Origin: Eledone cirrhosa
Taxonomy: Eukaryota
Length of the DNA stretch: 64,000 bases
Assembly (NCBI GenBank): GCA_964016885.1
Contig: OZ024752.1
Coordinates: 23,870,001 to 23,934,000 of the forward strand
Direction of reading: 5' to 3'
The position numbers were made by a program, and so were the translations under genes. This document shows, piece by piece, positions 34,847-64,000 of the stretch. Under the pieces are notes generated by a model. That model was not told the DNA's origin, did not search any database, and saw only the letters and a list, made by a program, of their open reading frames with translations. How positions within the stretch are numbered: the first letter of the stretch is position 1; every line of letters begins with the position of its first letter.

Positions 34847-37800
34847 GTGAATATAGACATAGAATATTCGAAAATATTCTGTATGTTTATAATAAACATT
34901 TTGAAGACCTAATCGCTATAGAATAGAATACGTCATGTATTACAATTAGATTCTCGATAAAAGCAAGGGAAGTAATCTACGCGTTTCATTCTTATTAGAA
35001 ATCTTCAGGACTACATATCCAGTGCTTTTATCGAGAATGACACAGCTAGAGACTTATAGAATACTTAGCTGTGTACAGGAACTGGTTTGAAAGAGCGGTT
35101 GCCGGTCCGGCAGAAATTAGAAATTGGAATATATGCTCTGAAATAGCGATATATATGTGAATATAGACATAGAATATTCGAAAATATTCTGTATGTTTAT
35201 AATAAACGTTTTGAAGACCTAATCGCTATAGAATAGAATACGTCATGTATTACAATTAGATTCTCGATAAAAGCAAGGGAAGTAATCTACGCGTTTCATT
35301 CTTATTAGAAATCTTCAGGACTACATATCCAGTGCTTTTATCGAGAATGACACAGCTAGAGACTTATAGAATACTTAGCTGTGTACAGGAACTGGTTTGA
35401 AAGAGCGGTTGCCGGTCCGGCAGAAATTAGAAATTGGAATATATGCTCTGAAATAGCGATATATATGTGAATATAGACATAGAATATTCGAAAATATTCT
35501 GTATGTTTATAATAAACATTTTGAAGACCTAATCGCTATAGAATAGAATACGTCATGTATTACAATTAGATTCTCGATAAAAGCAAGGGAAGTAATCTAC
35601 GCGTTTCATTCTTATTAGAAATCTTCAGGACTACATATCCAGTGCTTTTATCGAGAATGACACAGCTAGAGACTTATAGAATACTTAGCTGTGTACAGGA
35701 ACTGGTTTGAAAGAGCGGTTGCCGGTCCGGCAGAAATTAGAAATTGGAATATATGCTCTGAAATAGCGATATATATGTGAATATAGACATAGAATATTCG
35801 AAAATATTCTGTATGTTTATAATAAACATTTTGAAGACCTAATCGCTATAGAATAGAATACGTCATGTATTACAATTAGATTCTCGATAAAAGCAAGGGA
35901 AGTAATCTACGCGTTTCATTCTTATTAGAAATCTTCAGGACTACATATCCAGTGCTTTTATCGAGAATGACACAGCTAGAGACTTATAGAATACTTAGCT
36001 GTGTACAGGAACTGGTTTGAAAGAGCGGTTGCCGGTCCGGCAGAAATTAGAAATTGGAATATATGCTCTGAAATAGCGATATATATGTGAATATAGACAT
36101 AGAATATTCGAAAATATTCTGTATGTTTATAATAAACGTTTTGAAGACCTAATCGCTATAGAATAGAATACGTCATGTATTACAATTAGATTCTCGATAA
36201 AAGCAAGGGAAGTAATCTACGCGTTTCATTCTTATTAGAAATCTTCAGGACTACATATCCAGTGCTTTTATCGAGAATGACACAGCTAGAGACTTATAGA
36301 ATACTTAGCTGTGTACAGGAACTGGTTTGAAAGAGCGGTTGCCGGTCCGGCAGAAATTAGAAATTGGAATATATGCTCTGAAATAGCGATATATATGTGA
36401 ATATAGACATAGAATATTCGAAAATATTCTGTATGTTTATAATAAACATTTTGAAGACCTAATCGCTATAGAATAGAATACGTCATGTATTACAATTAGA
36501 TTCTCGATAAAAGCAAGGGAAGTAATCTACGCGTTTCATTCTTATTAGAAATCTTCAGGACTACATATCCAGTGCTTTTATCGAGAATGACACAGCTAGA
36601 GACTTATAGAATACTTAGCTGTGTACAGGAACTGGTTTGAAAGAGCGGTTGCCGGTCCGGCAGAAATTAGAAATTGGAATATATGCTCTGAAATAGCGAT
36701 ATATATGTGAATATAGACATAGAATATTCGAAAATATTCTGTATGTTTATAATAAACATTTTGAAGACCTAATCGCTATAGAATAGAATACGTCATGTAT
36801 TACAATTAGATTCTCGATAAAAGCAAGGGAAGTAATCTACGCGTTTCATTCTTATTAGAAATCTTCAGGACTACATATCCAGTGCTTTTATCGAGAATGA
36901 CACAGCTAGAGACTTATAGAATACTTAGCTGTGTACAGGAACTGGTTTGAAAGAGCGGTTGCCGGTCCGGCAGAAATTAGAAATTGGAATATATGCTCTG
37001 AAATAGCGATATATATGTGAATATAGACATAGAATATTCGAAAATATTCTGTATGTTTATAATAAACATTTTGAAGACCTAATCGCTATAGAATAGAATA
37101 CGTCATGTATTACAATTGATTCTCGATAAAAGCAAGGGAAGTAATCTACGCGTTTCATTCTTATTAGAAATCTTCAGGACTACATATCCAGTGCTTTTAT
37201 CGAGAATGACACAGCTAGAGACTTATAGAATACTTAGCTGTGTACAGGAACTGGTTTGAAAGAGCGGTTGCCGGTCCGGCAGAAATTAGAAATTGGAATA
37301 TATGCTCTGAAATAGCGATATATATGTGAATATAGACATAGAATATTCGAAAATATTCTGTATGTTTATAATAAACATTTTGAAGACCTAATCGCTATAG
37401 AATAGAATACGTCATGTATTACAATTAGATTCTCGATAAAAGCAAGGGAAGTAATCTACGCGTTTCATTCTTATTAGAAATCTTCAGGACTACATATCCA
37501 GTGCTTTTATCGAGAATGACACAGCTAGAGACTTATAGAATACTTAGCTGTGTACAGGAACTGGTTTGAAAGAGCGGTTGCCGGTCCGGCAGAAATTAGA
37601 AATTGGAATATATGCTCTGAAATAGCGATATATATGTGAATATAGACATAGAATATTCGAAAATATTCTGTATGTTTATAATAAACATTTTGAAGACCTA
37701 ATCGCTATAGAATAGAATACGTCATGTATTACAATTAGATTCTCGATAAAAGCAAGGGAAGTAATCTACGCGTTTCATTCTTATTAGAAATCTTCAGGAC

Positions 37801-40800
37801 TACATATCCAGTGCTTTTATCGAGAATGACACAGCTAGAGACTTATAGAATACTTAGCTGTGTACAGGAACTGGTTTGAAAGAGCGGTTGCCGGTCCGGC
37901 AGAAATTAGAAATTGGAATATATGCTCTGAAATAGCGATATATATGTGAATATAGACATAGAATATTCGAAAATATTCTGTATGTTTATAATAAACATTT
38001 TGAAGACCTAATCGCTATAGAATAGAATACGTCATGTATTACAATTAGATTCTCGATAAAAGCAAGGGAAGTAATCTACGCGTTTCATTCTTATTAGAAA
38101 TCTTCAGGACTACATATCCAGTGCTTTTATCGAGAATGACACAGCTAGAGACTTATAGAATACTTAGCTGTGTACAGGAACTGGTTTGAAAGAGCGGTTG
38201 CCGGTCCGGCAGAAATTAGAAATTGGAATATATGCTCTGAAATAGCGATATATATGTGAATATAGACATAGAATATTCGAAAATATTCTGTATGTTTATA
38301 ATAAACATTTTGAAGACCTAATCGCTATAGAATAGAATACGTCATGTATTACAATTAGATTCTCGATAAAAGCAAGGGAAGTAATCTACGCGTTTCATTC
38401 TTATTAGAAATCTTCAGGACTACATATCCAGTGCTTTTATCGAGAATGACACAGCTAGAGACTTATAGAATACTTAGCTGTGTACAGGAACTGGTTTGAA
38501 AGAGCGGTTGCCGGTCCGGCAGAAATTAGAAATTGGAATATATGCTCTGAAATAGCGATATATATGTGAATATAGACATAGAATATTCGAAAATATTCTG
38601 TATGTTTATAATAAACATTTTGAAGACCTAATCGCTATAGAATAGAATACGTCATGTATTACAATTAGATTCTCGATAAAAGCAAGGGAAGTAATCTACG
38701 CGTTTCATTCTTATTAGAAATCTTCAGGACTACATATCCAGTGCTTTTATCGAGAATGACACAGCTAGAGACTTATAGAATACTTAGCTGTGTACAGGAA
38801 CTGGTTTGAAAGAGCGGTTGCCGGTCCGGCAGAAATTAGAAATTGGAATATATGCTCTGAAATAGCGATATATATGTGAATATAGACATAGAATATTCGA
38901 AAATATTCTGTATGTTTATAATAAACATTTTGAAGACCTAATCGCTATAGAATAGAATACGTCATGTATTACAATTAGATTCTCGATAAAAGCAAGGGAA
39001 GTAATCTACGCGTTTCATTCTTATTAGAAATCTTCAGGACTACATATCCAGTGCTTTTATCGAGAATGACACAGCTAGAGACTTATAGAATACTTAGCTG
39101 TGTACAGGAACTGGTTTGAAAGAGCGGTTGCCGGTCCGGCAGAAATTAGAAATTGGAATATATGCTCTGAAATAGCGATATATATGTGAATATAGACATA
39201 GAATATTCGAAAATATTCTGTATGTTTATAATAAACATTTTGAAGACCTAATCGCTATAGAATAGAATACGTCATGTATTACAATTAGGTTCTCGATAAA
39301 AGCAAGGGAAGTAATCTACGCGTTTCATTCTTATTAGAAATCTTCAGGACTACATATCCAGTGCTTTTATCGAGAATGACACAGCTAGAGACTTATAGAA
39401 TACTTAGCTGTGTACAGGAACTGGTTTGAAAGAGCGGTTGCCGGTCCGGCAGAAATTAGAAATTGGAATATATGCTCTGAAATAGCGATATATATGTGAA
39501 TATAGACATAGAATATTCGAAAATATTCTGTATGTTTATAATAAACATTTTGAAGACCTAATCGCTATAGAATAGAATACGTCATGTATTACAATTAGAT
39601 TCTCGATAAAAGCAAGGGAAGTAATCTACGCGTTTCATTCTTATTAGAAATCTTCAGGACTACATATCCAGTGCTTTTATCGAGAATGACACAGCTAGAG
39701 ACTTATAGAATACTTAGCTGTGTACAGGAACTGGTTTGAAAGAGCGGTTGCCGGTCCGGCAGAAATTAGAAATTGGAATATATGCTCTGAAATAGCGATA
39801 TATATGTGAATATAGACATAGAATATTCGAAAATATTCTGTATGTTTATAATAAACATTTTGAAGACCTAATCGCTATAGAATAGAATACGTCATGTATT
39901 ACAATTAGATTCTCGATAAAAGCAAGGGAAGTAATCTACGCGTTTCATTCTTATTAGAAATCTTCAGGACTACATATCCAGTGCTTTTATCGAGAATGAC
40001 ACAGCTAGAGACTTATAGAATACTTAGCTGTGTACAGGAACTGGTTTGAAAGAGCGGTTGCCGGTCCGGCAGAAATTAGAAATTGGAATATATGCTCTGA
40101 AATAGCGATATATATGTGAATATAGACATAGAATATTCGAAAATATTCTGTATGTTTATAATAAACATTTTGAAGACCTAATCGCTATAGAATAGAATAC
40201 GTCATGTATTACAATTAGATTCTCGATAAAAGCAAGGGAAGTAATATACGCGTTTCATTCTTATTAGAAATCTTCAGGACTACATATCCAGTGCTTTTAT
40301 CGAGAATGACACAGCTAGAGACTTATAGAATACTTAGCTGTGTACAGGAACTGGTTTGAAAGAGCGGTTGCCGGTCCGGCAGAAATTAGAAATTGGAATA
40401 TATGCTCTGAAATAGCGATATATATGTGAATATAGACATAGAATATTCGAAAATATTCTGTATGTTTATAATAAACATTTTGAAGACCTAATCGCTATAG
40501 AATAGAATACGTCATGTATTACAATTAGATTCTCGATAAAAGCAAGGGAAGTAATCTACGCGTTTCATTCTTATTAGAAATCTTCAGGACTACATATCCA
40601 GTGCTTTTATCGAGAATGACACAGCTAGAGACTTATAGAATACTTAGCTGTGTACAGGAACTGGTTTGAAAGAGCGGTTGCCAGTCCGGCAGAAATTAGA
40701 AATTGGAATATATGCTCTGAAATAGCGATATATATGTGAATATAGACATAGAATATTCGAAAATATTCTGTATGTTTATAATAAACATTTTGAAGACCTA

Positions 40801-41218
40801 ATCGCTATAGAATAGAATACGTCATGTATTACAATTAGATTCTCGATAAAAGCAAGGGAAGTAATCTACGCGTTTCATTCTTATTAGAAATCTTCAGGAC
40901 TACATATCCAGTGCTTTTATCGAGAATGACACAGCTAGAGACTTATAGAATACTTAGCTGTGTACAGGAACTGGTTTGAAAGAGCGGTTGCCGGTCCGGC
41001 AGAAATTAGAAATTGGAATATATGCTCTGAAATAGCGATATATATGTGAATATAGACATAGAATATTCGAAAATATTCTGTATGTTTATAATAAACATTT
41101 TGAAGACCTAATCGCTATAGAATAGAATACGTCATGTATTACAATTAGATTCTCGATAAAAGCAAGGGAAGTAATCTACGCGTTTCATTCTTATTAGAAA
41201 TCTTCAGGACTACATATC
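34847..41218 (-). mobile_element. 310-bp tandem array, ~20.5 near-identical units, HHR on minus strand (non-LTR retrozyme-like), left arm
   Basis: gtgaatatagacat recurs every 310 bp from 34847; each unit has gtaatc-tac-gc-gtttc..tcttcag-gactac. Confidence 0.93.
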
Positions 41219-41227
41219 TAATTATAC

Positions 41228-43169
41228 AGAATCTAATTGTAATACATGACGTATTCTATTCTATAGCGATTAGGTCTTCAAAATGTTTATTATAAACATA
41301 CAGAATATTTTCGAATATTCTATGTCTATATTCACATATATATCGCTATTTCAGAGCATATATTCCAATTTCTAATTTCTGCCGGACCGGCAACCGCTCT
41401 TTCAAACCAGTTCCTGTACACAGCTAAGTATTCTATAAGTCTCTAGCTGTGTCATTCTCGATAAAAGCACTGGATATGTAGTCCTGAAGATTTCTAATAA
41501 GAATGAAACGCGTAGATTACTTCCCTTGCTTTTATCGAGAATCTAATTGTAATACATGACGTATTCTATTCTATAGCGATTAGGTCTTCAAAATGTTTAT
41601 TATAAACATACAGAATATTTTCGAATATTCTATGTCTATATTCACATATATATCGCTATTTCAGAGCATATATTCCAATTTCTAATTTCTGCCGGACCGG
41701 CAACCGCTCTTTCAAACCAGTTCCTGTACACAGCTAAGTATTCTATAAGTCTCTAGCTGTGTCATTCTCGATAAAAGCACTGGATATGTAGTCCTGAAGA
41801 TTTCTAATAAGAATGAAACGCGTAGATTACTTCCCTTGCTTTTATCGAGAATCTAATTGTAATACATGACGTATTCTATTCTATAGCGATTAGGTCTTCA
41901 AAATGTTTATTATAAACATACAGAATATTTTCGAATATTCTATGTCTATATTCACATATATATCGCTATTTCAGAGCATATATTCCAATTTCTAATTTCT
42001 GCCGGACCGGCAACCGCTCTTTCAAACCAGTTCCTGTACACAGCTAAGTATTCTATAAGTCTCTAGCTGTGTCATTCTCGATAAAAGCACTGGATATGTA
42101 GTCCTGAAGATTTCTAATAAGAATGAAACGCGTAGATTACTTCCCTTGCTTTTATCGAGAACCTAATTGTAATACATGACGTATTCTATTCTATAGCGAT
42201 TAGGTCTTCAAAATGTTTATTATAAACATACAGAATATTTTCGAATATTCTATGTCTATATTCACATATATATCGCTATTTCAGAGCATATATTCCAATT
42301 TCTAATTTCTGCCGGACCGGCAACCGCGATAAAAGCACTGGATATGTAGTCCTGAAGATTTCTAATAAGAATGAAACGCGTAGATTACTTCCCTTGCTTT
42401 TATCGAGAATCTAATTGTAATACATGACGTATTCTATTCTATAGCGATTAGGTCTTCAAAATGTTTATTATAAACATACAGAATATTTTCGAATATTCTA
42501 TGTCTATATTCACATATATATCGCTATTTCAGAGCATATATTCCAATTTCTAATTTCTGCCGGACCGGCAACCGCTCTTTCAAACCAGTTCCTGTACACA
42601 GCTAAGTATTCTATAAGTCTCTAGCTGTGTCATTCTCGATAAAAGCACTGGATATGTAGTCCTGAAGATTTCTAATAAGAATGAAACGCGTAGATTACTT
42701 CCCTTGCTTTTATCGAGAATCTAATTGTAATACATGACGTATTCTATTCTATAGCGATTAGGTCTTCAAAATGTTTATTATAAACATACAGAATATTTTC
42801 GAATATTCTATGTCTATATTCACATATATATCGCTATTTCAGAGCATATATTCCAATTTCTAATTTCTGCCGGACCGGCAACCGCTCTTTCAAACCAGTT
42901 CCTGTACACAGCTAAGTATTCTATAAGTCTCTAGCTGTGTCATTCTCGATAAAAGCACTGGATATGTAGTCCTGAAGATTTCTAATAAGAATGAAACGCG
43001 TAGATTACTTCCCTTGCTTTTATCGAGAATCTAATTGTAATACATGACGTATTCTATTCTATAGCGATTAGGTCTTCAAAATGTTTATTATAAACATACA
43101 GAATATTTTCGAATATTCTATGTCTATATTCACATATATATCGCTATTTCAGAGCATATATTCCAATTT
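41228..43169 (+). mobile_element. Inverted right arm of the 310-bp array, ~6.5 units, one with a 62-bp deletion near 42327
   Basis: Reverse complement of the unit; 9-nt filler at junction 41219-41227; one period of 248 bp. Confidence 0.93.
41478..41520 (+). ncRNA. Minimal type I hammerhead ribozyme (one per 310-bp unit; first left-arm copy 34972-35014 on minus strand)
   Basis: GUAGUC-CUGAAGA-UUUCUAAUAAGAAU-GAAAC-GC-GUA-GAUUAC; stem I 6 bp; stem III is the palindrome ACGCGU. Confidence 0.88.
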
Positions 43170-43341
43170 ATAATATATATATATATATAACATATATATA
43201 TATATATAATATATATATATATATAACATATATATATATATAATATATATATATATATATTATATATATATATATATAATATATATATATATATTATATA
43301 TATATATAATATATATATATATATAACATATATATATATAT

Positions 43342-43373
<32 letters not shown>

Positions 43374-43435
43374 ATAATATATATATTATATATATATATA
43401 TATATTATATATATATATAATATATATATATATGT

Positions 43436-43467
<32 letters not shown>

Positions 43468-43533
43468 ATAATATATATATATATATAACATATATATATA
43501 TTATATATATATATATATATTATATATATATAT

Positions 43534-43565
<32 letters not shown>

Positions 43566-43586
43566 ATATATATTATATATATATAT

Positions 43587-43618
<32 letters not shown>

Positions 43619-43690
43619 ATAACATATATATATATATATTATATATATATATATATATTATATATATATATAACATATATATATATATAT

Positions 43691-43745
<55 letters not shown>

Positions 43746-43817
43746 ATAACATATATATATATATATTATATATATATATATATATTATATATATATATAA
43801 CATATATATATATATAT

Positions 43818-43872
<55 letters not shown>

Positions 43873-43877
43873 ATAAC

Positions 43878-43908
<31 letters not shown>

Positions 43909-43919
43909 ATATATATATA
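43170..43919. repeat. (TA)n tract
   Basis: Direct reading. Confidence 0.97.
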
Positions 43920-44435
43920 CTAGCAGTAAAGCCCGGCGTTGCTCGGGGTCGCTCAGTAGCTGTGTTAAAGTTACAATGTTAAGTTTCTTTTTTGGCTTAA
44001 AAACTGTAGGTTCTACTGTGCAGACTTGCATGTGGTGTTTTTGATTAATATTCCCTCAACCAACAATATGCCTTATGAAGTTAAGAAAACATAACGATAA
44101 CCCGAATGTTATAACAAAAGAGGATGCTGGGGATAAAAACTGCACTGGTTATTTATTAACAAAGACTGAGAAAGCCAGCGTAATTTTTTACGTAAGACGC
44201 TCAATGTAAACAGAACAAAGGGAAATAACTGATAACTTACGCTCAAAAATCGATACATTATATTCGATTTCGTCACATAGGGTGGGTCAATTTGAAATTT
44301 TTTTTTTCCGATGTCTTCGCTAGGGCTGAATGTACAAGTCTCGCAATTTCGGTGCAATTCCGTGAGAGATTCTAAGAGGAGATGTGTGCCAAAAATCGAT
44401 AGACAGACAGACAACCACAGTTTTATATATATAGA
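43920..44435 (-). mobile_element. Non-autonomous Helitron, 516 bp
   Basis: Minus strand A|TC...CTAG|T termini; subterminal GC hairpin cccgagcaacgccggg; (GTCT)n near 5' end. Confidence 0.8.
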
Positions 44436-44790: not shown

Positions 44791-45995
44791 ATAATAAACA
44801 ATACAATATAATTACCTCATTACCAGAGGTTTCCCGAATAAGACGAATACAAGAAACGTCCTCATTCGTTCGTCAGACTATGCGTGTGAGCATGCATGTG
44901 TGTGTATGCGTGTTTGTATATGTATACGAATGCATTCGTATGTGCGCGTGTGTGTGTATATGTGTTTTTATATCTGTTTTTTGCATACTTATATATATAT
45001 GTGTGTGTGTATATGTATATGTATATATATATGTATATATGTATGTGTATATATATATAGTCGCGTGCGTGCGTGTGATTAGATGTACATGTACGTATAT
45101 ATATATATGTGCTTCGTGTGTATGTATGCGCGCCTTTGTATGTGTGTACGCATGTATGTGCTTTTGTCTGTACGTATTTATATATATATATTTATATATA
45201 TATATGTGTATGTTTTCTATTTTTTCTAGTGTAACTTTATAATTGAGAAGCTCTCCCTCTCACTTTCTCTTTGATTTAATTTTTTTATTCTCATATATTT
45301 TTTTTATTTTTTTATTTTTTCATTTTTTCATTTTCATATTATATATATGTATCGACCTTCAGCCTGACACTGCTTTGACTGATACACTCCCTTCCCTGTA
45401 TATATCACTTGCATGTACGTGGTTGCGCGTGTGTGTGTGTTTATACGCGTGCTTCCATACTTGTATGTGTATATATTTCAATCCTTAGTACCTGAGTCTG
45501 TATGTACGTTAACTCTATTATCTTACAATTTCTTTTTTCAACATATATTATATACGTATTTGTGGTCACACATACACTGATATGCTTGCCCTCATGTATG
45601 TACTTGCGCACACATTTTTTCACTATACACATGCATTAGTACATACACACATATGTACATTTGTGAGTGCATATACACACATTTATACACATACCCTAAC
45701 TATATATCCTTATTTTATTTTTATATATCTCTTGCATTACTTTTATTTATATATTTTTTTGCCCGTTAAACTTTTGCCTTTCTTGAGATTTTTCAAATAT
45801 TTCACTGTTTTAAATTGCCTTGTCTGACGAACGAATGAGGACATTTCTTGTATTCGTCTTATTCGGGAAACCTCTGGTAATGAGGTAATTATATTGTATT
45901 GTTTATTATACATTATACATTAAACTCTGGTACTTACTTAGAGCACTCTTCACTCCTATGACTTTTTCAATTTTCAACGGAAACTTAAATACTTA
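44791..45995 (+). mobile_element. ORF-less PLE-type element (family D): pLTR with HHR and short inverted copy
   Basis: 44791-44878 is the reverse complement of ~45822-45909; (TG/TA)-rich interior; ends in short (TA)n. Confidence 0.78.
45817..45886 (+). ncRNA. Type I hammerhead ribozyme
   Basis: GCCUUGU-CUGACGA-[CGAAUGAG..CUUAUUCG]-GAAAC-CUCUG-GUA-AUGAGGU. Confidence 0.78.
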
Positions 45996-46070: not shown

Positions 46071-46720
46071 GAAATGAAGATCAACAACAACGGCAGAAGC
46101 AGCAACAACAACAGCAACTACAACTACAACAGCGACAGCAACAACAACAACAGCAACAACACCACTGTCTGTGTTGAATATGTGTGTATGTATGTTATTA
46201 TAGTCGCAACAGCACCACCACCATCGTCTGCAGCAGCAGCATCAGTGAAATGAAGAACAACAACGGCAGCAGCAGCAACAACAACAACAATAACAACGAC
46301 AGCAACAACAACTTTCACCACCATCACTGACACTACCCACCATACTGACACCACCCTCCACCTTCACCACCACCACAACCATCACCATCACCATCACTGG
46401 CACCATCCACCACCACCGCCATCACCACCATCACTAACACCATCCAGCAACACAACAACCACCACCACCATCACTCGCACCATCCACCACCACCGCCATC
46501 ACCACCACCATCCACCACCTTCACCACCACCACTACTACCACCGCCACCATCACTGGCACCATACACCACCACCACCATCGCCACCATCAGTCAACATCC
46601 ACCACCATCACCATCACTGACACCATCCACCCCCTCCACCACTACCACCACCATCACTGACACATCCACCACCATCACCATCACTAACACCATCCACCAT
46701 CACCACCATCACTGACACCA
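46004..46720. repeat. Compound (CAG/CAA/CAC/CAT)n simple repeat
   Basis: Direct reading. Confidence 0.92.
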
Positions 46721-49713
46721 GGTAGATCTGCTGAAATAGCGGAGATGCTGGAGAGAAGGCATGTGGATGTGTGCTGCGTGCAAGAGGTGAGATGGAGAGG
46801 TGCCTCTGCGAGACTAGTCGTAGGCAAACATCTTAACTATAAGCTTATCTGTGTAGGTAAGGATAATGGGTTAGGGGGAGTAGGCATTTTCCTGGCTGAG
46901 AGATGGATCAATAAGACAATAGAGGTAGTTCGAGTTAGTAATCGAATAATTAAGGTTAGATTAGTTGTAAGCAGGAGACTACTGACAATCATCTCTGCCT
47001 ATGCTCCCCAAGCAGGCCTAGGCAAAGATGAGAAAGACTGGTTTTACGAGCAACTTTTACAAACAACTGCAATGACAGAGGACGGAGACATCGTTATGCT
47101 AGTAGGGGACTTCAATGGTCATGTTGGACAGCTACAGGATGGTTACACTGGGGTACATGGTGGGCACGGTTACGGCTCAAGAAATGAAGAAGGAGTGAGA
47201 CTTCTTGAATTTTGTGATGCAGGTACACTGACTATTTGCAACACAAACTTCCAGAAACCTGCCAATCACCTAATAACCTACAAATCTGGTGAGCACATAA
47301 GCCAGATTGACTTCTTATTAGTTAGGCAGCGGGACAGGCAGATAGTGTCTAATACCAAGGCATACCCTGGGGAAGAATGTACCCCTCAGCATAGGTTAGT
47401 CGTTAGTGATATCTCAGTAAGCAAGAGTTGGAATGAGACATACAGGAAGGTGTGGAGAAGAAAGGTCTGGAAGCTAAAAGACCTTTCACTAAAATACAAA
47501 TTTAGGAAAGCCCTTCAAGATGTGTATGACTAAAAGAAAGACGATTTAGAGACGTATGACATAGGTAATAACTGGAATTTCTTAAGTGACAACTTACTGC
47601 AGGCTACTGATGAAACTTGTGGCTGGAGCAGAGCTCCAACCAGACAGAGAGTGACCTGGTGGTGGAACAGCACAGTAAATAAGGTCATTAGAGACAAAAG
47701 ACTACCATGGAAGGCTTGGAAAAAGGGTGGATGTAGGGGAAAATATACAGCCGCTAAGAGAGAAGCTAGACGTCAGGTGTAGTTAGCACGCAGGGAGGCT
47801 GAGAGTAGGAGGTTTGCCAATGTTCTGCGACGGGAAGATCAGAGGCGTTCGGTGTTCCACATTGCAAGGCAGTCTGTCAATGCAAATCAGGATGTTGTTG
47901 GAGATAAATGTGTCCGGAACGATGCCGGTGTACTTAGTGTCACGAATGATCAGAAAAAGCAGGCCTGGAAATGTCATTATGAGAGACTGGTGAATGTGTA
48001 GAATGAATGGGAGGGAGAGAAATTACCCTCAGTAGATCCGACAGAGGGACCAGCTATTGAGATTGACGAATATAGGGTCCAAGAGGCGATTAAGGAAATG
48101 AAAAATGGTACGGCTGCTGGACCATCGGGAATAGTTGCTGAGATGCTGAAGGCATCAGGGGACGTAGGTACTAAACTGGTTGCACGCATTATCAATCAGG
48201 CTATATGTGGTGATGTCATATCCAAAGACTGGTGCAGCAGTATTCTCATAAATTGCTACAAAGGTAAAGGAGAGGGGTATACAACAGGTGGGTCAGGTTA
48301 TGAAAGTAGCAGAAAGGATATTAGCACAACTAATTAGAGAAAGGGTCAAACTAGATGAGATGCAGTTTGGTTTTGTGCCTGGGAAAAGTAAAACACATGC
48401 CTTCTTCTTGGTGAGACAATTGCAAGAGTGTTTCTTTGAGGAAAATAAGCCACTATACTTAGCCTTTGTTGACCTAGAGAAGGCCTTTGATAGGGTACCC
48501 CGATCTGCCATCTGGTGGTCCGTAAGGAAACTAGGTGTTGAGGAATGGCTTGTGAGGACAGTGCAAAATTTGTACAGAAGTACTGTCAGTAAAGTCAGGG
48601 CAGGAATGGAGTTTAGTGAGGAATTCCAGATACAAGTAGGAGTACATCAAGGTTCGGTCCTCAGCCCGCTCTTGTTCATTATAGTCCTCCAAGCCATAAC
48701 AGAGGAGTTTAAGACTGGCTGTCCATGGGAACTTCTCTATGCTGACGATCTGGTTCTTATAGCAGAATCAGTAGAGGAGCTAGAGAATAAATTCTGACTA
48801 TGGAAACAGCAGTTGGAAGCAAGAGGACTGAGAGTGAACCTAGCTAAGACAAAAGTGTTGATGAGTAGAAAAGAGGACAAAACTCTGATTCCGTCAAGGA
48901 AATGGCAATGTTCGATATGCAGAAAAGGAACTGTCATAAATTCTATAAAATGCACACGATGCAGATCCTGGGTACACAAGAGATGTAGCGGAATAGCAGG
49001 CAAATTAATAGGTAGGGATAAATATATATGCAGTAGATATACATGGAAATTAGACAGTAGAAGTCGCATTGATAGACACATTTTTCAAATACAAGCGGGT
49101 GCTATAGAAGTGGCTTCCGGTACCCATGAGATCAGATTAGCATGGGAGGGGGTGTTCCGAGGCTATAGTATCTAGAATAAGGACGGGTTGGAAGAGCTGC
49201 TTCCTCTGCTGACGAAGAAGGTTTTCTCCCTGCGTACGAAAGGCCGGTTATATGATGCCTGTTGAGGAGCACAATGTTGCATGATAGTGAGACATGGGTA
49301 GCAACTGCAGAGGATATGCGACGGCTGGAGAGAAATGAGGCAAGCATGCTCCGTTGGATGTGCAATGTCAATGTGCGTGAACAACCCAGCATGAATGTGT
49401 TGAGAGAGAAACTGTGCCTGGGAGGGATAGAATGTAGTGTGCAAGAGAGGAGACTGAGGTGGCATGGACATGTGATGCGCATGGAGGATGACCTATGGGT
49501 GAAGAAGTGCCAGGAAATGCCAGTTGAAGGAAGACGTGGTAGAGGTAGACCACGATAAACATAGGCGGAGGTGGTGAGAACAGACCTCAGATCGCTGAAG
49601 CTCACGGTGGAGATGACGAAGGACCGTGACAAGTGGAGAGATGCTGAGCTGAACAAGACCCGTCCCACCCTTGCAAGCAGGGTAGAGCGGATGTAAAATG
49701 ATGATGATGATGA
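46721..49713 (+). mobile_element. Decayed near-complete RTE-clade LINE (APE endonuclease + RT + PHD-like finger), (ATG)n tail
   Basis: CVQEVRW, SAYAPQ, GDFNGH, IDF, QHRLV (APE); QFGF, FVDLEKAFD, GVHQGSVLSP, YADD (RT); multiple stops and frameshifts. Confidence 0.93.
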
Positions 49714-50267: not shown

Positions 50268-50751
50268 TAAGAATTAAAATACTACAGTGTGTTGGAGTTA
50301 AACACCCTCTTCATATTATATTAATGACAGTAAAGATATAGCTCAATGTAATTAAACAGAGCCGAAGAATTATGAAAATAAACCAAAGAAGCCTTCAATA
50401 CATCAAAAGTCTTTATTAGCCAACAATGTTTCGTCCTATTAAGGACTCATCAGGGCAAGTAAAGCTATAAGAAGCACTATCGGCCAATATAAGCCAAAAA
50501 CTCAGAAGAATATGGAGTATACATACATTAAAGCATAGGAAAATTATCAATTAAAAAATTATCAAGTAAAAAATTGCTAAGGAAGTGAATAACATTTTGA
50601 ACCCATATTACAAATATAGTACAATGCAAAAACTAAAACTAAACACAAGTGGTGATATAAAGCGAGAATTACAGTACGATATATAATATAATATAATATC
50701 ATAATTGATAATGATAATAACAATAATATTAAAAGGCCCAATATACATACT

Positions 50752-50787
<36 letters not shown>

Positions 50788-52120
50788 TATCAATAAACAT
50801 ATCCATCAATACAAACACAAACTAACACTTATTAAGAGTTTAAATATAAATATAATACATATATTATTTACAGTATAAAATGATAAAGAAATGAATAAAA
50901 ATAAAAATATAATATATAATATACTATATAATTTATAATCTCCGGTCAATTTGCACAAATAATATAAATATTACAATAACACTATAATAACAATATTATA
51001 ATATATATATTGGCATATAACTTAACAAATCATATAAAGTTACACACGGTGAGAAAAAAATATCATACAGAACTGAATTGTGTTGAAAAAATTGTGCTGG
51101 AAAAATATCTATACCGTTGTAACAAAATAGACGGGGGTCGAGTTTTTATACAATTGGTATAAATAAATATTATCTAAACATTATAAAAAATTATAAAAAT
51201 ATAAACATATTACAGAATTTACAAAATTTAACATAAGGGTACATCGAATAATCGGTAAATATTTAAGATCTATAGTACGATTACATAAAGTGATATGATA
51301 TAACAACTTCAATATCAAATAACAAACATAGTATAGTATACATAATTACATGGTTGGTAGACGGACATATGTGAATAAGTGAATAAGAACCAGACAGAAA
51401 CTACGCACGGTAGTAAAAAAAATATAAATAAAATCAACCGGAAATCGAAAAACAAAAACAAATATATTTACTTAGGTGTCACAAGCAGTTAAGTAAAAAA
51501 ATTAGGAATCAAACCCGGATAAATGACTAGAAAACCTTATTAAATTAATTAATATTGAAAGTATTTAAAATACATAATAAGTCAATACAAAATTAGCTAT
51601 GGTTTAAGTTATCAAAATCTCTAAAGTTTAAGATATCTCAATAAAAATATCCGGAATAGAATGAAATATTCTACTTTCAGTTGAATAACGTTATCTAATA
51701 AAAGGACCTTAAATAGAACTATGGTAGGCCAATGGGAACAGAAAAAAGAAAAAAGAAAGGTATGAAGGATAGGAAGGAGCATAAAATCATAATCAATATA
51801 CTGTATAATACAATAGAAAGGAGCATAAAAGGGAATTGAATATAATTATAGTATAATTGAAGGGGCGAATGACAAGTGTGTGGGGGGGTAGAGGGGGAGG
51901 GGGTTAATTATCTAAATGAGAATCCAAATAAAATATATAATCAGATATAAACTCATAAGGTGTTAATAGTGAAAATATAATATTTAAGAAGATAGATATG
52001 GTATGGTAGCCAAGGGACTATGAAAGCTAGATCGAAAAGCTGTTAAAAACCAATAATAATAATGATAATGATGGTGGTAAACAAAATGAACCAAACAAAA
52101 AAGATAAGGGAATATAGCAG

Positions 52121-53074
52121 CTAATGGATACAATTTACATTACCAGAACTTTTAGGTTTATAATAAAAGTAAGAATTAGAAATGGCGTGGGGGCAGGAAG
52201 AAAATATCTCAGACTTTCTATTAAGTAAGAGTTCCTTGGAGAAAATTATAGAGTGGGTCTCAAGGATACAGAGATTACAGAATTTAGTGTGTGTTGATAG
52301 GTTATTAGAGCGTGCTACTAATCGCCAATTAAGACTATATGGTATATTAGCCCCCTTAAGATCCCAGATATGGTGTGCTAAAGAAGTAGAATTCTTAAAC
52401 TTAACATGTTTAAAATTAGAGATATGAGAATTAAACCTAGTCTTAAAAGTGTTAGATGTTGAGCCTATATATGTGCTATTAGAGGAATTAGTTTTAACTA
52501 CACAAGCATAAACAATGTTCCTAGAGAGGCAGTTACCGTTTAAAGGGCAGTTAACACTCACTCTACAGTTACACTTCCGGGTGCTATTGATCGGCTGAAG
52601 TAGTGATGCATCACTCGTAGGGTTACTATGAGATAAGGTCTGCTCAGGTGGTAAGGCATTTATGGATCTATCCAGACTAGTAGTACGCAAAGAGGAGTAG
52701 CCGTCCCTAATTTTCCTATTGTTAGTGCTAGCTAAATGAGAACTAATATTAGGGGTGGTAGAGAATGATAGTTTAATTACATTTTTATTAAAAATACCAT
52801 GGTATTTATTAGTAGGAGGGAAATTTTTCTCTAAGATAGAAAAGAAAGACCTAGGGATGTTAGTTAATACTTCCTGATCATATGGCGGGTTAAAATAAGT
52901 ATTGAGTCTCCTTCTATTTCTATCCTTACCAACTCTACCGTTGTCTAATATCCCATTATTAAGATCTGGGTTACTACGAGGACCAGTTGAAACCACATTA
53001 TTAGAATCAGCCGAAACCCCATTGAGTCTCCTTCTGTTTCTACCTTTAGTATATCTACTGCTATCTGGAATCAT
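52121..53074 (-). CDS. PLE linker + Cys motif + GIY-YIG endonuclease (5'-truncated)
   Basis: YFNPPY, CNCRVSVNCPLNGNC, NIVYAC, TYIGST..FKTRFNSH, CNLCILE, LLNRKSE. Confidence 0.9.
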   Translation of the reverse strand: MIPDSSRYTKGRNRRRLNGVSADSNNVVSTGPRSNPDLNNGILDNGRVGKDRNRRRLNTYFNPPYDQEVLTNIPRSFFSILEKNFPPTNKYHGIFNKNVIKLSFSTTPNISSHLASTNNRKIRDGYSSLRTTSLDRSINALPPEQTLSHSNPTSDASLLQPINSTRKCNCRVSVNCPLNGNCLSRNIVYACVVKTNSSNSTYIGSTSNTFKTRFNSHISNFKHVKFKNSTSLAHHIWDLKGANIPYSLNWRLVARSNNLSTHTKFCNLCILETHSIIFSKELLLNRKSEIFSSCPHAISNSYFYYKPKSSGNVNCIH

Positions 53075-53365
53075 ATCAATAGGATTAGGGCTACTAATAG
53101 GATCAGTAGAAACAACACTATTAGTATATTATATTATATTATATTATATTATATTATATATCGTACTGTAATTCTCGCTTTATATCACCACTTGTGTTTA
53201 GTTTTAGTTTTTGAATTGTACTATATTTGTAATATGGGTTCAAAATGTTATTCACTTCCTTAGCAATTTTTTACTTGATAATTTCCTATGCTTTAATGTA
53301 TGTATACTCCATATTCTTCTGAGTGTTTGGCTTGTATTGGCCGATAGTGCTTCTTATAGCTTTAC

Positions 53366-53407
53366 TGGCCCTGATGAGTCCTTAATAGGACGAAACATTG
53401 TTGGCTA
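53366..53407 (+). ncRNA. Minimal type I hammerhead ribozyme (mirror copy 50417-50458 on minus strand)
   Basis: UGGCC-CUGAUGA-GUCCU-UAAU-AGGAC-GAAAC-AUU-GUU-GGCUA. Confidence 0.85.
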
Positions 53408-53453
53408 ATAAAGACTTTTGATGTATTGAAGGCTTCTTTGGTTTATTTTCATA

Positions 53454-54422: not shown

Positions 54423-54490
<68 letters not shown>
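53455..54490. repeat. (TA)n tract with ATAACATATTT variants
   Basis: Direct reading. Confidence 0.97.
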
Positions 54491-54492
<2 letters not shown>

Positions 54493-56420
54493 GTAGGAGG
54501 TGAGTTTTGTTGTAGCACAATAAAGCAATGCAAATATTGGATAAGTAGCACTCAACAGTTTACAGGACTGGAGTATAAATAATATAAAATCAAAAGATGG
54601 TTAAAAGAGTTCCATGTATTTTATTTTGTGCATTTCAAAAACAAATATCGTCATGGGATGATATTTGAGTTCTCATCAGATAAAATAGGGAGACATGATA
54701 TGAAGCTTAAAAAACACTTGCGAGCAGTGAAGTGTTAAATCAACATATGAAAAATAAAATAAGATGGATATATGAGATTGGGAAAAAGGAAAAGAAGGGG
54801 GGAGGGAAAAGGTAAGGAAGAGGAAGAACGAATATAGATAGAAGAAAAAAATTTAATAATAAGGAAAGGATGACGGATGTGGAGTATAAGAAGGAAGGAT
54901 GAGAGAAGAGGAGAAAATGGGTGAGAGAGAGAGAGATATATAACCTTTAATATTGAGAAACACTGTCTCACAGAGAAAAATAAAAAAAAACGTAAGATAA
55001 TACATAATTTAAAAAATTAAGAAATTAAAAGTTAATGAGGTTTATGAATGGTGATGCTTATGATTAAAGAAAAAGGAATTAAGAATACTATTTAAGGTTT
55101 ATATATTGAAGGGTTTAATAAGATGTGCGAAAAGGAATTTATTAAAATGTATTATTAAAATAAAATATATTAAAAAGATAAGTTGAATGAAGATAAGGTT
55201 AAATGAATTATAAACTTAGAGGAATTAATTAGGGTCCAAGTTTGTTTCTATATATTGTAATAGGAAAAAGTAAATAATAGATTTAATACGAGCATGGAAG
55301 GAGAGAAGAAAGAAAAAATTCAAGAATCTCAAATCTATCTTCTAATAAACTTATATTTGACGCTAAAGCCAATTATTACAACAATGCGCTTTCCAGAGCG
55401 CATCTTAAAAATTTAATATGGATTACCTTCGTGAGGATGAAAATATTAAGTCTTCTTTCTCATGTTTGCAAATACTTTAAATGTGATTTTATAAATTATA
55501 TATGATAGTATACTTTAATAATAATATAGATATTTATAAACTTTTATAGCCTGAAATATTATACATTTTGATTAATTCATTATTCTGAACTAACATATAT
55601 GATTTGAAATTTAACGGTCAGCCAGATACGTTTGGATATATATAGTGTATATAATTAATTGTTAGTATATTTCTAATTAACTAAGGACTCGAAATTAAAC
55701 CCTTATAATTACACCCAGATATATTTAATATTTAGATTGATGGATACTTCTAGATAATTCAATAATTCAAAGATTCGAGTTTACTCTTTCACAAAGCTAT
55801 GCCCAAATGTATATTCATGTGTTTGTATAGATATATATAATTTTTGCATTATCTAATCATACCCTATTCATCCACGACAATACAAACCTCCCTCCCTATG
55901 CTTTATACTATAAACATTATTCCTCCTTGTCTCTCTATCCTTGATCAATTCTCTTTTGCTTTCTATACTTCTAGTAATTATATTTTCTCCTCATCTGTTT
56001 CTCTCTGTCTTTCTTCTTTCTTCAATAATTTAAATTATTTGAATCTCTAACAGTTATGTATTTTTAAGCTTTCTCACACGCATCCTCTGTATTATATGTA
56101 AATTTGTTCATGTCTTAATCTTAAGGTATATAAATATTGAGTTTTGTCATATCTTATTCACTACCATGACTGAATCTTAACCATCTACTATGTCAGGGTA
56201 TGTCATGCATCATCTTATTTTATCTGATGAGGACGTACTGTTGAAGTTAGCTCAGTACCTCTGAAATATGTATAATAAAATATACTTGATTACACGAATG
56301 TCTATTTTTGTTAATATTTTGAATTAATATTAATAACTCCGGAAAACCATATTTGTTGAGTGCTTCCAATATATTGTAAAACTCATTCTTTCATTTATTC
56401 ATTGAACCTTGTTTAACCTT

Positions 56421-56425
<5 letters not shown>
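54491..56425. mobile_element. Two diverged PLE 3' ends joined head-to-head, with a short RT-thumb remnant at 55323-55400
   Basis: Degenerate HHR on minus strand 54617-54687, intact HHR on plus strand; remnant translates RISNLSSNKLIFDAKANYYNNALSRA; (TA)n flanks. Confidence 0.75.
56216..56282 (+). ncRNA. Type I hammerhead ribozyme
   Basis: UAUUUUAU-CUGAUGA-[GGACGUACUG..CAGUACCUCU]-GAAA-UAUGU-AUA-AUAAAAUA; 8-bp stem I. Confidence 0.85.
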
Positions 56426-60829: not shown

Positions 60830-62000
60830 AGAATTATCTTAATAACTTTGCATACAATGTTCTTTGTCACAGTTTTATTACCTCGCCTTCCTTGCTTATT
60901 AGTGTTCAATACTTTAATTTTTACATCTGTGAACTCTTGAAAAGCGACATACAGTTGCCCATGGCTAAATATGTTTGATCCTGTCTTTTGTTGATTGTAA
61001 TTGCTTACGACAGTCTTAATGGAAACTAGGTTCTTTCCAAAGAAAAGGGATGTTTGCATATCTGGGAGCTAACGTCAGTCTTGGGATCAAAACACACCTG
61101 CCCATCAAAGAACCATTGATTTGAGAAGCTTTGATAAAATGTTGATTCATTCCTACTACTTCTAATCTTGTGCCATTGCATAGTCTGTTCTGGATCAAAA
61201 TATTCGTAGAAGCATTATTAGGTTCATCAGCAAGCACTCTATCTGTTCTGTAATAAGTATGGCTGTTACCAGGGAGTTATCTGAGAACCTCTTCATTGAT
61301 TAATAGGCAATTAGCATTGGGAGATAAAATGACACGTGTTCTTTTCTCTTGTTGCGTTGTATCGCTGAAAATGTGTTTCACTAAACAGTCATCTACACAT
61401 GATAATGAAGGAACATCAACTTCATCTTCATTCATTTCAATTGGAGGTGTTCTTCCATTACCCAGATGTAGCTGCCACTTTGCAAACTCTTTCTCATCTT
61501 CTCTTACTCTGACATTATTGCTTAATGTAAAATGTTGAAAGAAGTACCACAGATGGGAGTTTTTAAGGCACATTTCTAATGTGGCTTCACAGGTACTCCT
61601 TGGTAATATTGGCAGCAGTTGCCTGAAATCACCTCCCAAAAGCAAAACCTTTCCCCAAAAAACTTCATTGACACCAGTGATGTCTTGAAGGCACTTGTGA
61701 ATGGTATGAATTGCATGCTAGAATCATAGAAGCCTTGTCCAGTATTGTGAGATCCAGGTTCTGTAAGTAATTAGCATGAGCCATACACATTACATACACT
61801 GGTCTCTGTTAGTGGAACAGGTAGTTTGAATAAATTGTGCACAGTTCTACCTCCCAGCAGCAGTGTAGATGCTATGACAGTCCAAGCACCACAACATAGC
61901 TGATAGTTATTTATCTAGAAGTGAAAAATCAGTGTATTGAATAGGTATGTTTTGCCACAACCTCCAGGTGCATCTGCATAGAAGCTGGTATGTGCTGGCT
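60830..62000 (-). pseudogene. Pif1-family (SF1B) helicase pseudogene, Helitron RepHel C-terminal part
   Basis: APGGCGKT (Walker A), LLGGDFRQLLP, LCNGTRL, FSHGQLYVA in different frames. Confidence 0.88.
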
Positions 62001-63022: not shown

Positions 63023-64000
63023 TCATCATCATCTTCGTTTAACGTCCATCTTCCACGTTAGCATGGGTTAGACGGGAGTTGTCCCACTTGAGGCAAGGCT
63101 GGTCAGGTGACCGTGTCTCGCTCTTATAGGACTATCTGGCAGGTTTTCTACGGCTGGATGCCCTTCCTAACACCAACCACATTTACAGTGTGGAACTAGG
63201 AACTTTTTACCGTGTTGCCTACACGGCCACATTACAGCGTGGACTGTGTGTGTTTTTGTTGTGACTCCTACATGACCTCGATCTCATCTCATTTATTTTG
63301 ACTGGATGTTGTGGTACCAACTTTACAGAGAGAGGTTGGTGGGAGTGGGAGGATAGGGTTGTGGATTGGGGTGTATATTTGGTTAAGAGGTGCCTACTGA
63401 CTGTAGGTTTCGCTTTGTACATAGGCAAGGCGGGTCTTCTGTATTACTGCGTAGCGCCAAAGATCTCAGTCCAGTGACATTGTCTTAGATAGGTGCGAGT
63501 GTGTAAGGTCGGAATTTATCAGATCGTCCTGGGTTTTTCTGGGTCTACCTACTCCGTAACTACCATCAATTTTGATCGCCCTGCACTTTTTTATACAGCT
63601 GTCGTCTTTCATGCGCATCACGTGGCCATACCAATTTAGTTTTCTCTCAAGTAAACAGCATCTGATCCCTATGAGCGTTAGATCATCTGCGTATAGGAGT
63701 TCCCATGAGCAGCCGGTCTTGAACTCCTCTGTTATAGCCTGAAGGGCAATAATAAATAGGAGGGGGCTAAGGACTGAGCCTTGATGAACGCCAACTTTTA
63801 CACTAAATTCTTCACAATATTCATTGTTAATTCTAACCTTACTGACTGTTTCATTATACATAGCTTGTATAGCTCTCACAAGCCATTCATCTACACCTAG
63901 TTTTCTAAGAGCCCACCAGATAATGGAGCGGGGGACTCTGTCAAAGGCTTTCTCCAGGTCTACAAAAGCTAAGTAGAGGGGTTTACTTTTAGCTAGGTAC
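63023..64000 (-). mobile_element. RTE-clade LINE 3' part, same family as 1-1373, with 684-bp internal deletion; runs off the window
   Basis: DLEKAFD, GVHQGSVLSP, YADDLTLI fused to GIRCCLL; homologous 3' UTR and (CAT)n tail. Confidence 0.92.

Follow-up and report, generated by a model that had tools for sequence, protein, structure and literature searches.

Discussion of animal retrozymes turns on two questions: which enzyme moves them, and whether their arrays arise from copying of circles or from satellite expansion. A 2020 paper (PMC7229834) and a 2020 review name Penelope-like elements (PLEs) only as strong or likely candidates for the moving enzyme. The locus described here, in a 64,000-nt stretch of the Eledone cirrhosa genome (the window), combines a hammerhead tandem repeat with the integration footprint of PLEs, and a family that is a candidate partner is found close by. 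The array spans ~8.3 kb and comprises 27 near-identical 310-nt units, with a hammerhead motif in each unit. The retrozyme class itself is already known, as are hammerheads in a cephalopod genome, with 235 Rfam hits in giant squid. The array adds a member to the animal non-LTR retrozymes, and was most likely inserted by PLE machinery.

A preliminary description presented the array as 27 copies of a 310-nt unit with a single period. The unit is recovered by TRF at 99% match, but there is no single head-to-tail period, since the array consists of two inverted arms, with 21 of the 27 hammerhead cores on the minus strand and six on the plus strand. Arm A (34839..41218), with the ribozyme on the minus strand, contains 20.6 tandem units and runs from monomer position 269 at its 5' end to position 139 at its 3' end, where an internal AUAUAUAU ends and (TA)n begins. 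Arm B (41228..43169), with the ribozyme on the plus strand, contains ~6.4 units and runs from monomer position 24 to position 167, again followed by (TA)n. The arms are opposed 5'-to-5' (head-to-head), both 3' ends enter (TA)n, and the end of arm B lies 28 nt past that of arm A. This head-to-head inversion with offset ends, absent from the preliminary description, is the most informative feature of the locus. Arm A lacks 1 nt near 37117, and one unit of arm B has lost 62 nt (junction at 42327) and with them the ACACAGCUA hairpin.

Between the arms, 5' end to 5' end, lies a 9-nt spacer (41219..41227). It may consist of two short pieces of the unit, copied from monomer 27-34 and 94-102 and joined via microhomology, a match that could also have arisen by chance. 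Arm B was also considered as a mirror fold-back of arm A and rejected, as the variants do not run in mirrored order and the longer arm, arm A, is not the one whose 3' end extends further.

On both sides, the array is embedded in (TA)n-like microsatellite, the apparent target (left, 33732..34838; right, 43170..43919). A check for a target-site duplication returned, as the longest string common to the two TA-repeat flanks, pure microsatellite. PLEs leave an inverted 5'-truncated copy, a 30-40-bp tail, and a TA bias (PMC8557442), and in biochemical work both strands are cut and extended, with two internal start sites yielding the tail and a start site that lacks homology to the cut DNA (PMC11167929). 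The array has an inverted 5'-truncated arm in a microsatellite target and an end offset of 28 nt, compared with the 30-40 nt of the published tail; the end of arm A has TA microhomology, unlike the start site in PMC11167929. The TA target and the inverted arm match the published PLE footprint, and the offset ends resemble it. The array is probably a non-coding, non-autonomous retrozyme that was inserted once, by the reverse transcriptase (RT) and GIY-YIG endonuclease of a TA-targeting PLE. The earlier suggestion of a recent, (TA)n-flanked, retrotransposed insertion is supported.

The candidate partner of the array is the family of a Hydra-clade-like PLE at 11965..17335 (minus strand). This element carries an inverted 3' arm, is flanked by (TA)n on each side, and has ends offset by 89 nt. 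Its RT (14519-15886) and GIY-YIG-like part (13670-14323) are separated by an interruption of the frame, and it displays RWR and DKT motifs, a C-terminal endonuclease, and CxCx5C. Pfam returned no family for four of the eight proteins, left the Hydra-like RT unrecognized, and found GIY-YIG weakly in one protein; because the RT was missed, its assignment is based on motifs and on homologues. The Hydra-clade PLEs of Craig et al. 2021 (PMC8557442) share with the array a (TA)n target, an inverted 5'-truncated copy, an end offset, and a hammerhead, and carry RWK, compared with RWR in the neighboring element. Unlike them, the array has no protein, no detectable local pLTR similarity, and another ribozyme type. 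The monomer showed no similarity to 10 pLTR or repeat segments of the window, the best score being equaled in 20 of 200 shuffles.

Beside the array is a short palindromic PLE insert (33278..33731), which is TA-flanked, has an 87-nt end offset, and carries hammerheads at 33464 (minus strand) and 33632 (plus strand). Among the other inserts of the window, which were picked from a self-alignment and are not a random sample, the termini are inverted in all seven that were measured, and polarity is head-to-head in all six that could be oriented by ORF or ribozyme. The footprint of TA target, inverted arm, and offset ends is shared by six PLE-type neighbors, the Hydra-clade element among them. End offsets are 82-143 nt in six of the seven measured inserts and 5 nt in the seventh. 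Because the 28-nt offset of the array is unlike the 82-143 nt of the six, the Hydra-clade partner stays a candidate. An Rfam E-value scan of 1900-6000 returned only chance AT-rich matches. The window also holds a 200-N gap and a 1.5-kb segment that is present twice with two differences.

Each unit carries a type I hammerhead, represented here by the copy at 41478..41520 (plus strand), with cleavage predicted after A41514, in agreement with the position given earlier. Helix I has 6 bp and is followed by the core CUGAAGA; helix II has a U.U and 3-4 bp with a UAAUAA loop and is followed by GAAA; and helix III has 2 bp with a GC loop, forming the palindrome ACGCGU. The core conforms to CUGANGA...GAAA...UH with helices I and II, the complete 43-nt ribozyme is intact in 26 of the 27 units, and none of 20,000 shuffled monomers contained a hammerhead by chance (at least 6 bp in stem I and 4 bp in stem II, either strand). 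The U.U at the base of helix II, in place of the G10.1-C11.1 pair, weakens the ribozyme. Rfam gave no hits at gathering level in the 64-kb window; the best match is the hammerhead family HH9, aligned over the whole model, at 17 bits (E 0.26) against a threshold of 52. No ribozyme was found on the opposite strand of the unit. Around the ribozyme, an extended helix I (41453..41542, plus strand) adds internal loop 1, a short stem, and a perfect 16-bp distal helix. This distal helix matches 34950-34965/35023-35038 of arm A, where the 16-bp helix named in the preliminary description is indeed a perfect reverse complement.

Minimal PLE-type hammerheads have a helix II of 7-8 bp, a helix I of 4-5 bp with a poor loop 1, an extra base ahead of helix II, and a G-C closing pair (PMC4209133). 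The array ribozyme had been assigned to this minimal type, but it has instead the canonical metazoan layout (6-bp helix I with loop 1 and a long distal helix, 4-bp helix II, 2-bp helix III). Its proposed dependence on dimers, by contrast, agrees with the modeled structures: left unconstrained, two ribozymes reach their minimum energy as a double hammerhead, predicted at -111.4 kcal/mol versus -106.5 kcal/mol for two single folds. In the circle, helix I has a probability of 0.78-1.0, and the single-hammerhead state has one of 0.02, a value that would keep the circle from self-cutting.

The RNA predicted to be released is represented by a reference monomer running from cleavage site to cleavage site (41515..41824, plus strand). 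It has a GC content of 33.5%, its longest stop-free frame on the circle, with both polarities considered, is 59 codons, and it contains no tRNA (ARAGORN) and no B box. Folded as a circle, the monomer is branched and scores z = -5.0 against 150 dinucleotide shuffles, but the claim that it is highly base-paired holds only modestly, with a paired fraction of 59% versus a shuffle mean of 55% and a shuffle maximum of 65%. The four further stems named in the preliminary description are all present in the monomer; the pair atcgctat/atagcgat exists as complementary arms, which the minimum-energy fold distributes among other stems.

Assignment to the non-LTR retrozymes is supported. Like the metazoan members of this class (PMC7229834), the array consists of tandem non-coding units within 150-450 nt, with GC below 50% and a single type I hammerhead each; the predicted fold is branched and stable with the ribozyme unblocked, and a dimer fold is predicted, as in members whose helix III is weak; no LTR, PBS, or PPT was seen; and PLEs occur in the same genome. 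Published units measure 220-240 nt in coral, 350-390 nt in mussel, and 330/350 nt in axolotl, and coral arrays reach 62-mers (PMC7229834). The axolotl HHR_Amex2 shares both the U.U at the helix II base and the 2-bp helix III; its cleavage is 22% in the monomer and improves in the dimer (PMC7229834). Unlike these retrozymes, the array has another sequence, a helix III loop of just 2 nt, and a layout of two inverted arms set in (TA)n, their ends offset. Such a layout for retrozymes was not found described in main texts, and supplements may list cephalopod retrozymes or inverted arrays. The vertebrate PLE-derived non-autonomous retrozymes of Li, Clavereau and Pollet (bioRxiv 10.64898/2026.07.22.740005) likewise have tandem type I hammerhead units and co-occur with PLEs; the evidence there is co-occurrence and pLTR homology, whereas here it is insertion anatomy, with no pLTR homology within the window. 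The same preprint reports insect units with a mean of 313 bp in arrays of up to 300 units, and found one of nine predicted Xenopus retrozyme dimers to cleave in vitro, the other eight being inactive.

If the array was inserted by a PLE, the cycle would begin with transcription of a donor array, in which adjacent ribozymes would pair via ACGCGU into the double hammerhead computed above. Cutting after GUA would presumably release 310-nt monomers, and a host ligase could close them into circles, by analogy with coral, mussel, and axolotl. A PLE protein would then nick both (TA)n strands, the anatomy of this step being visible in the array and the enzyme putative. From each nick, cDNA would start at one of two nearby internal RNA sites, monomer about 131-139 and 167, and pass through several consecutive units of a template that is either a circle or an uncut multimer, after which the 5'-truncated ends of both products would be joined over the 9-nt patch to give head-to-head arms. 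The array thus offers concrete start sites, at monomer about 139 and 167. It is possible, though on balance doubtful, that a Hydra-clade Penelope enzyme made the whole array in one event, reverse-transcribing one 310-nt circle from starts 28 nt apart over ~20 rounds in one direction and 6 in the other and then joining the products. If true, this would be direct genomic evidence that PLEs mobilize animal retrozymes in trans, by reverse transcription of the rolling-circle type. It would also identify the partner clade and the start sites, and allow the cycle to be rebuilt in the in vitro PLE assay that already exists. That the circle moves between hosts as well is much less likely still.

Variation among the units bears on how the copies arose. 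Of the 25 full monomers that run from cleavage site to cleavage site, 18 show no difference from the reference monomer, and private variants are present among the units. Two variants are common to separate units: T28C occurs twice, once per arm, and T80C twice, three units apart (P about 8e-5 for this sharing, assuming independent and uniform variants). These shared variants argue against one pure uninterrupted rolling-circle copy of one circle, and must stem from copying at the DNA level, from template switching or a multimeric template, or from polishing of the assembly; within the proposed cycle, some DNA-level copying or template switching would produce them.

The same two variants also favor an alternative in which a short PLE-type insertion, with one or a few units per arm and possibly descended from a terminal repeat of some unseen PLE family, later grew locally into a satellite through slippage or unequal crossover, with the ribozyme as a passenger and circles uninvolved. 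The very unequal arm lengths fit this alternative, as do the proposal of Li et al. of a pLTR origin followed by local amplification and their finding that eight of nine tested elements were inactive (bioRxiv 10.64898/2026.07.22.740005). However, both arms are multimeric and share one common haplotype, the variants show no higher-order period, and no pLTR similarity was found in the window. The ribozyme is, moreover, canonical and not PLE-minimal, and all its constrained positions are conserved across variants in sequencing runs. We therefore regard later expansion as unlikely, noting that it can be combined with insertion of a retrozyme by a PLE, from which it differs only in the timing of the copies.

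Four of six matching sequencing runs (X1, X4, X5, and X6, of unspecified type) were compared with the part of the array that comprises the junction and arm B, and the 310-nt unit was found in all four. The search that gave these runs listed none of RNA, a result that carries no information on expression. Their summed depth is not a copy number, and stretches of arm B without coverage reflect reads assigned to other copies. In X1, the 665 contigs fall at identities of 99% or more (304), 95-99% (187), 90-95% (99), and below 90% (75). Among the 13 X1 joints listed, 12 are other head-to-head junctions; six of these 12 are near-symmetric fold-backs, where 0.8 would be expected, and these could also be explained as library chimeras. 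At least eight X1 contigs break off from the unit at position 139 and continue as an AT run, much as arm A does, whereas the end at monomer 167 is not among the 8 of 43 X1 loose ends listed and was seen once, in arm B. The many variants, joints, and TA ends in X1, a run of unspecified type, would fit a dispersed family.

That the copy number, homogeneity, or inversion is an artefact of assembly, through a fold-back read or a collapsed or polished repeat, is very unlikely. The gap and the duplicated segment in the window give some reason for caution, as does the capacity of polishing to homogenize arrays, and the 41218/41228 junction is not among the X1 joints listed. Against this, the arms differ in end monomer position and flanks, they meet asymmetrically (269/24) across a 9-nt insert, some units have private variants, and the unit is present in four of four runs, with the same layout recurring in unrelated neighbors.

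Hammerhead viroids and viroid-like satellite RNAs are non-coding, have ~300 nt, a hammerhead, and a predicted stable circle, and carry ribozymes in both polarities. The array resembles them in size, lack of coding, hammerhead, and predicted stable circle, but its ribozyme is type I, in one polarity, and not sequestered in a rod, and it is genome-integrated with retrotransposon marks. The label "viroid-like" is not retained, given the ribozyme on one polarity only and the branched fold. X5 and X6, which carry other organism labels, each contain a 340-nt contig (310 + 30, a closed loop in the 31-mer graph) with the differences seen in X1 and almost no further variants. These contigs could suggest that a viroid-like circular RNA, able to replicate autonomously and to pass between hosts, left an endogenized copy, but this is highly improbable, as tandem DNA gives a closed loop equally in runs of unspecified type, contamination, diet, or a related species would account for low-depth runs, the opposite strand has no ribozyme, the fold is branched, and pattern scans for the unit gave no match in viral contigs or, twice, in metagenome contigs.

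The family in X1 is diverse and very deep, whereas the array is near-clonal; a young, diverse, high-copy family would offer many natural replicates. Arms A and B carry identical alleles at the five sites at which they differ from the runs. Three of these five differences lie within the ribozyme, at N7 and at two positions of loop II, all of which tolerate change.

Tandem Repeats Finder reports the array (34839-43169) as separate blocks with a 310-nt period and a 99% match, bearing out the unit of the preliminary description. The single uniform run of 27 copies given there is replaced by two arms of opposed orientation (20.6 and ~6.4 units), recognized by mapping unit 20-mers along the window. 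Arm A (34839-41218) has the ribozyme on the minus strand, with 21 cores, and lacks 1 nt near 37117. In arm B (41228-43169) the ribozyme is on the plus strand, with 6 cores, and 62 nt are missing from one unit at 42327. The arms meet 5' to 5' with 9 nt between them, and a TA microsatellite directly abuts the 3' end of each. In a monomer numbered from cleavage site to cleavage site (41515 being position 1), arm A starts at position 269 and stops at 139, directly past an internal AUAUAUAU, and arm B starts at 24 and stops at 167. Eighteen of the 25 full monomers are identical, the variants being C184T, G1T, T28C (twice, once per arm), T80C (twice), and deletions of 1 and 62 nt.

The ribozyme combines CUGAAGA and GAAA with three helices: helix I has 6 bp, helix II starts with U.U and ends in a UAAUAA loop, and helix III has 2 bp and a GC loop. 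Cleavage of the reference copy is predicted after GUA, at 41514. We presume that loop 1 could contact loop 2, through a loop 1 U and the final loop 2 A. The motif is intact in 26 of 27 copies, the other being disrupted by G1T, and 0 of 20,000 shuffled monomers contained a comparable one. Rfam gave no match at curated thresholds; the top weak match was hammerhead HH9, with the full model covered (17 bits vs a threshold of 52, E 0.26). By the definitions in the available text of PMC4209133, under which helices I and II have 6 and 4 bp and helix III has 1-2 bp and a small palindromic loop, the sequence is that of a canonical metazoan hammerhead. These helix lengths rule out the minimal PLE (Penelope-like element) type first assigned to it, while one hammerhead per unit stands.

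The U.U pair is shared with axolotl HHR_Amex2, which is described as cleaving weakly as a monomer and well as a dimer (PMC7229834). For a two-ribozyme stretch of the array, the predicted unconstrained minimum-energy fold is a double hammerhead (-111.4 kcal/mol vs -106.5 as two single folds), which supports the proposed dimer dependence, and a single active ribozyme fold in the circular monomer has a probability of ~0.02. These modeled energetics agree with cutting in multimers and stability once circular. Activity is nevertheless not assured, because 8 of 9 Xenopus retrozyme dimers showed no cleavage in the accessible part of a preprint (bioRxiv 10.64898/2026.07.22.740005). The 16-bp helix and four other stems named previously are all found in the unit. 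Its circular fold is more stable than those of shuffles (z -5.0), although "highly base-paired" overstates a branched architecture with 59% of bases paired vs 55% in shuffles. A viroid-like character is not upheld: the fold is branched and the ribozyme occurs in one polarity only, a search of the opposite strand finding none. The unit contains no open reading frame above 59 codons, no B box, and no tRNA.

PLE-bearing TA microsatellites fill the window, and many of these PLEs have their own hammerheads as opposed pairs. The element at 11965-17335 is Hydra-clade-like, with a reverse transcriptase (RT) followed by a GIY-YIG-like domain; its frame is interrupted, and RWR, DKT, and CxCx5C motifs are present (RWK, DKT, and CxCX5C in the Hydra clade; PMC8557442). 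A Pfam search did not recognize its RT, whose best named homologs are from Argonauta hians (41-42% identity), which points weakly to an octopod host. The element is nearly full, with a hammerhead in its 3' repeat and an inverted arm of 1.2 kb at 99.7% identity, and is therefore a young insertion.

According to the available text of PMC8557442, almost all Hydra-clade families target (TA)n, the PLE footprint comprises a 5'-truncated copy lying inverted at the 5' end and, at one end, a tail of 30-40 bp, and target-site duplications are masked where the target is a microsatellite. In vitro, a PLE protein is reported to cleave and extend both strands of AT-rich DNA, the tail arising from two adjacent internal RNA start sites (PMC11167929). 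The end offset is 28 nt in the array and 82, 89, 87, 128, 5, 100, and 143 nt in seven other inserts, which were selected for inverted ends in self-alignment. Head-to-head polarity, read from the reading frame or ribozyme, is found in six of these seven, as in the array; the TA-flanked inserts 1960-4165 and 54490-56425 lack an inverted arm.

One PLE hammerhead family, at 12152 (-), 17999 (+), 33464 (-), 33632 (+), and 56224 (+), is marked by a helix II that is long and interrupted and, in the helix III region, by the palindrome AUAUAU or AUAUGU. At 44797-45908, opposed hammerheads at 44876 (-) and 45824 (+), each with a 9-bp helix II, flank a microsatellite-rich core, with an offset of only 5 nt. 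A compact textbook hammerhead (53371-53412) lies within the inverted arm of the PLE 50271-53453.

The array anatomy, intact motif, favorable dimer fold, PLE-type ends, and family variation are the observed basis for a mechanism, and insertion of the array as a retrozyme (a non-coding, hammerhead-bearing retroelement) by PLE machinery is probably the best explanation. An array transcript would be cleaved by its ribozymes and the cut monomers ligated into a circle; a PLE protein would then mobilize this RNA, priming at both nicked strands, copy several units in each direction, and join the 5' ends. We favor the circle as template because a transcript carrying 20 active ribozymes would be expected to be short-lived. 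An uncut multimer is also possible as template, since uncut RNA is described as the main substrate of one PLE (PMC11167929). That a Hydra-clade PLE copied one 310-nt circle from two start sites in a single event is a tentative, somewhat doubtful proposal. The two shared variants (T28C and T80C) have P ~8e-5 under uniform independent mutation; they must be explained by copying at the DNA level, template switching, inheritance as a multimer, or polishing errors. Arm B is not accounted for by simple fold-back copying of arm A, which is at odds with the order of the variants. The partner PLE is uncertain, because the array offset differs from those of local Hydra elements and no similarity of the unit to PLE terminal repeats in the window was detected.

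Six sequencing runs contain 53-73% of sampled array words, and contigs of four were compared with 40880-43185; these contigs may be DNA or RNA, and may come from other individuals or species. Run X1 has 665 contigs on this interval, at identities from 99+% down to <90%, with a summed word depth (not equivalent to copy number) near 2e5 across the unit vs 3-27 per joint. Of 13 listed X1 joints, 12 connect arm A with arm B and so represent further head-to-head junctions, whose positions differ from that in the window; this set is incomplete, two joints appearing in a side table alone, so tail-to-tail joints cannot be counted. Half of the 12 fold back almost symmetrically, against 0.8 expected, and might stem from self-priming or from library chimeras; the other six are asymmetric, resembling the window's own junction. 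An X1 loose end at monomer 139 (8 contigs) runs into AT and matches the arm A end; an end at 167 is not among the 8 of 43 loose ends listed. One X1 contig (depth 2.65) joins 41514 to 41250 exactly at the predicted cleavage site, a single observation of the pattern that a template jump onto a cut monomer end would give.

Runs X5 and X6 each have one 340-nt contig (310 + 30) forming a closed loop, a form that a circle and tandem DNA would equally produce. The runs have five differences in common relative to the window (core N7, two loop II sites, a site in a hairpin loop, and a weakly paired site), and none of these is present in the window's 27 units, in either arm; the family is thus diverse and the array near-clonal. 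The ribozyme changes spare constrained positions, in a small sample of five changes. Scans of metagenome and viral contigs for the unit pattern gave no match.

We place the array among the animal non-LTR retrozymes as a new member, in which the traces of PLE integration are unusually clear. Arrays of up to 62 units are described in coral (PMC7229834) and hammerhead arrays of up to 300 units in Ophonus (bioRxiv 10.64898/2026.07.22.740005), and molluscs are represented by a mussel example. The accessible part of the giant squid genome paper gives 235 hammerhead loci; the main text of the Octopus vulgaris repeat paper does not mention ribozymes or retrozymes. The literature searched yielded no cephalopod retrozyme, though subscription papers and retrozyme supplements may contain cases, and no inverted, TA-targeted, offset-ended retrozyme arrays (the preprint and PMC7761336 included), of which subscription papers or supplements may have some.

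A non-coding, TA-flanked tandem (4288-5810 and 5922-7446; period ~571 nt, ~2.3 copies) has an inverted arm of 142 nt and an end offset of 128 nt. No hammerhead was identified in it, and it could be a PLE passenger that lacks a ribozyme. Two copies of the entire insert are present, with 2 differences between them, reflecting either a recent duplication or an assembly artifact. Between TA tracts, 1960-4165 comprises three pyrimidine-rich tandem copies of ~713 nt, with a CUGAUGA half-core close to every unit end and no complete hammerhead in the scan; these are possibly PLE terminal repeats. The pair 43920-44420 and 61277-61717, which includes a PIF1-like helicase fragment (Pfam E 7e-16), probably represents Helitron pieces, its CTAG-starting end with a GC hairpin being one that we take to resemble Helitron termini. 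LINE fragments at 1-975, 46688-49175, and 63037-64000, with AP endonuclease and RT Pfam matches, are presumably RTE-like. Identical 154-nt segments (26151-26304 and 31289-31442) flank a TA tract and a 200-N gap (31089-31288), which suggests local mis-assembly.
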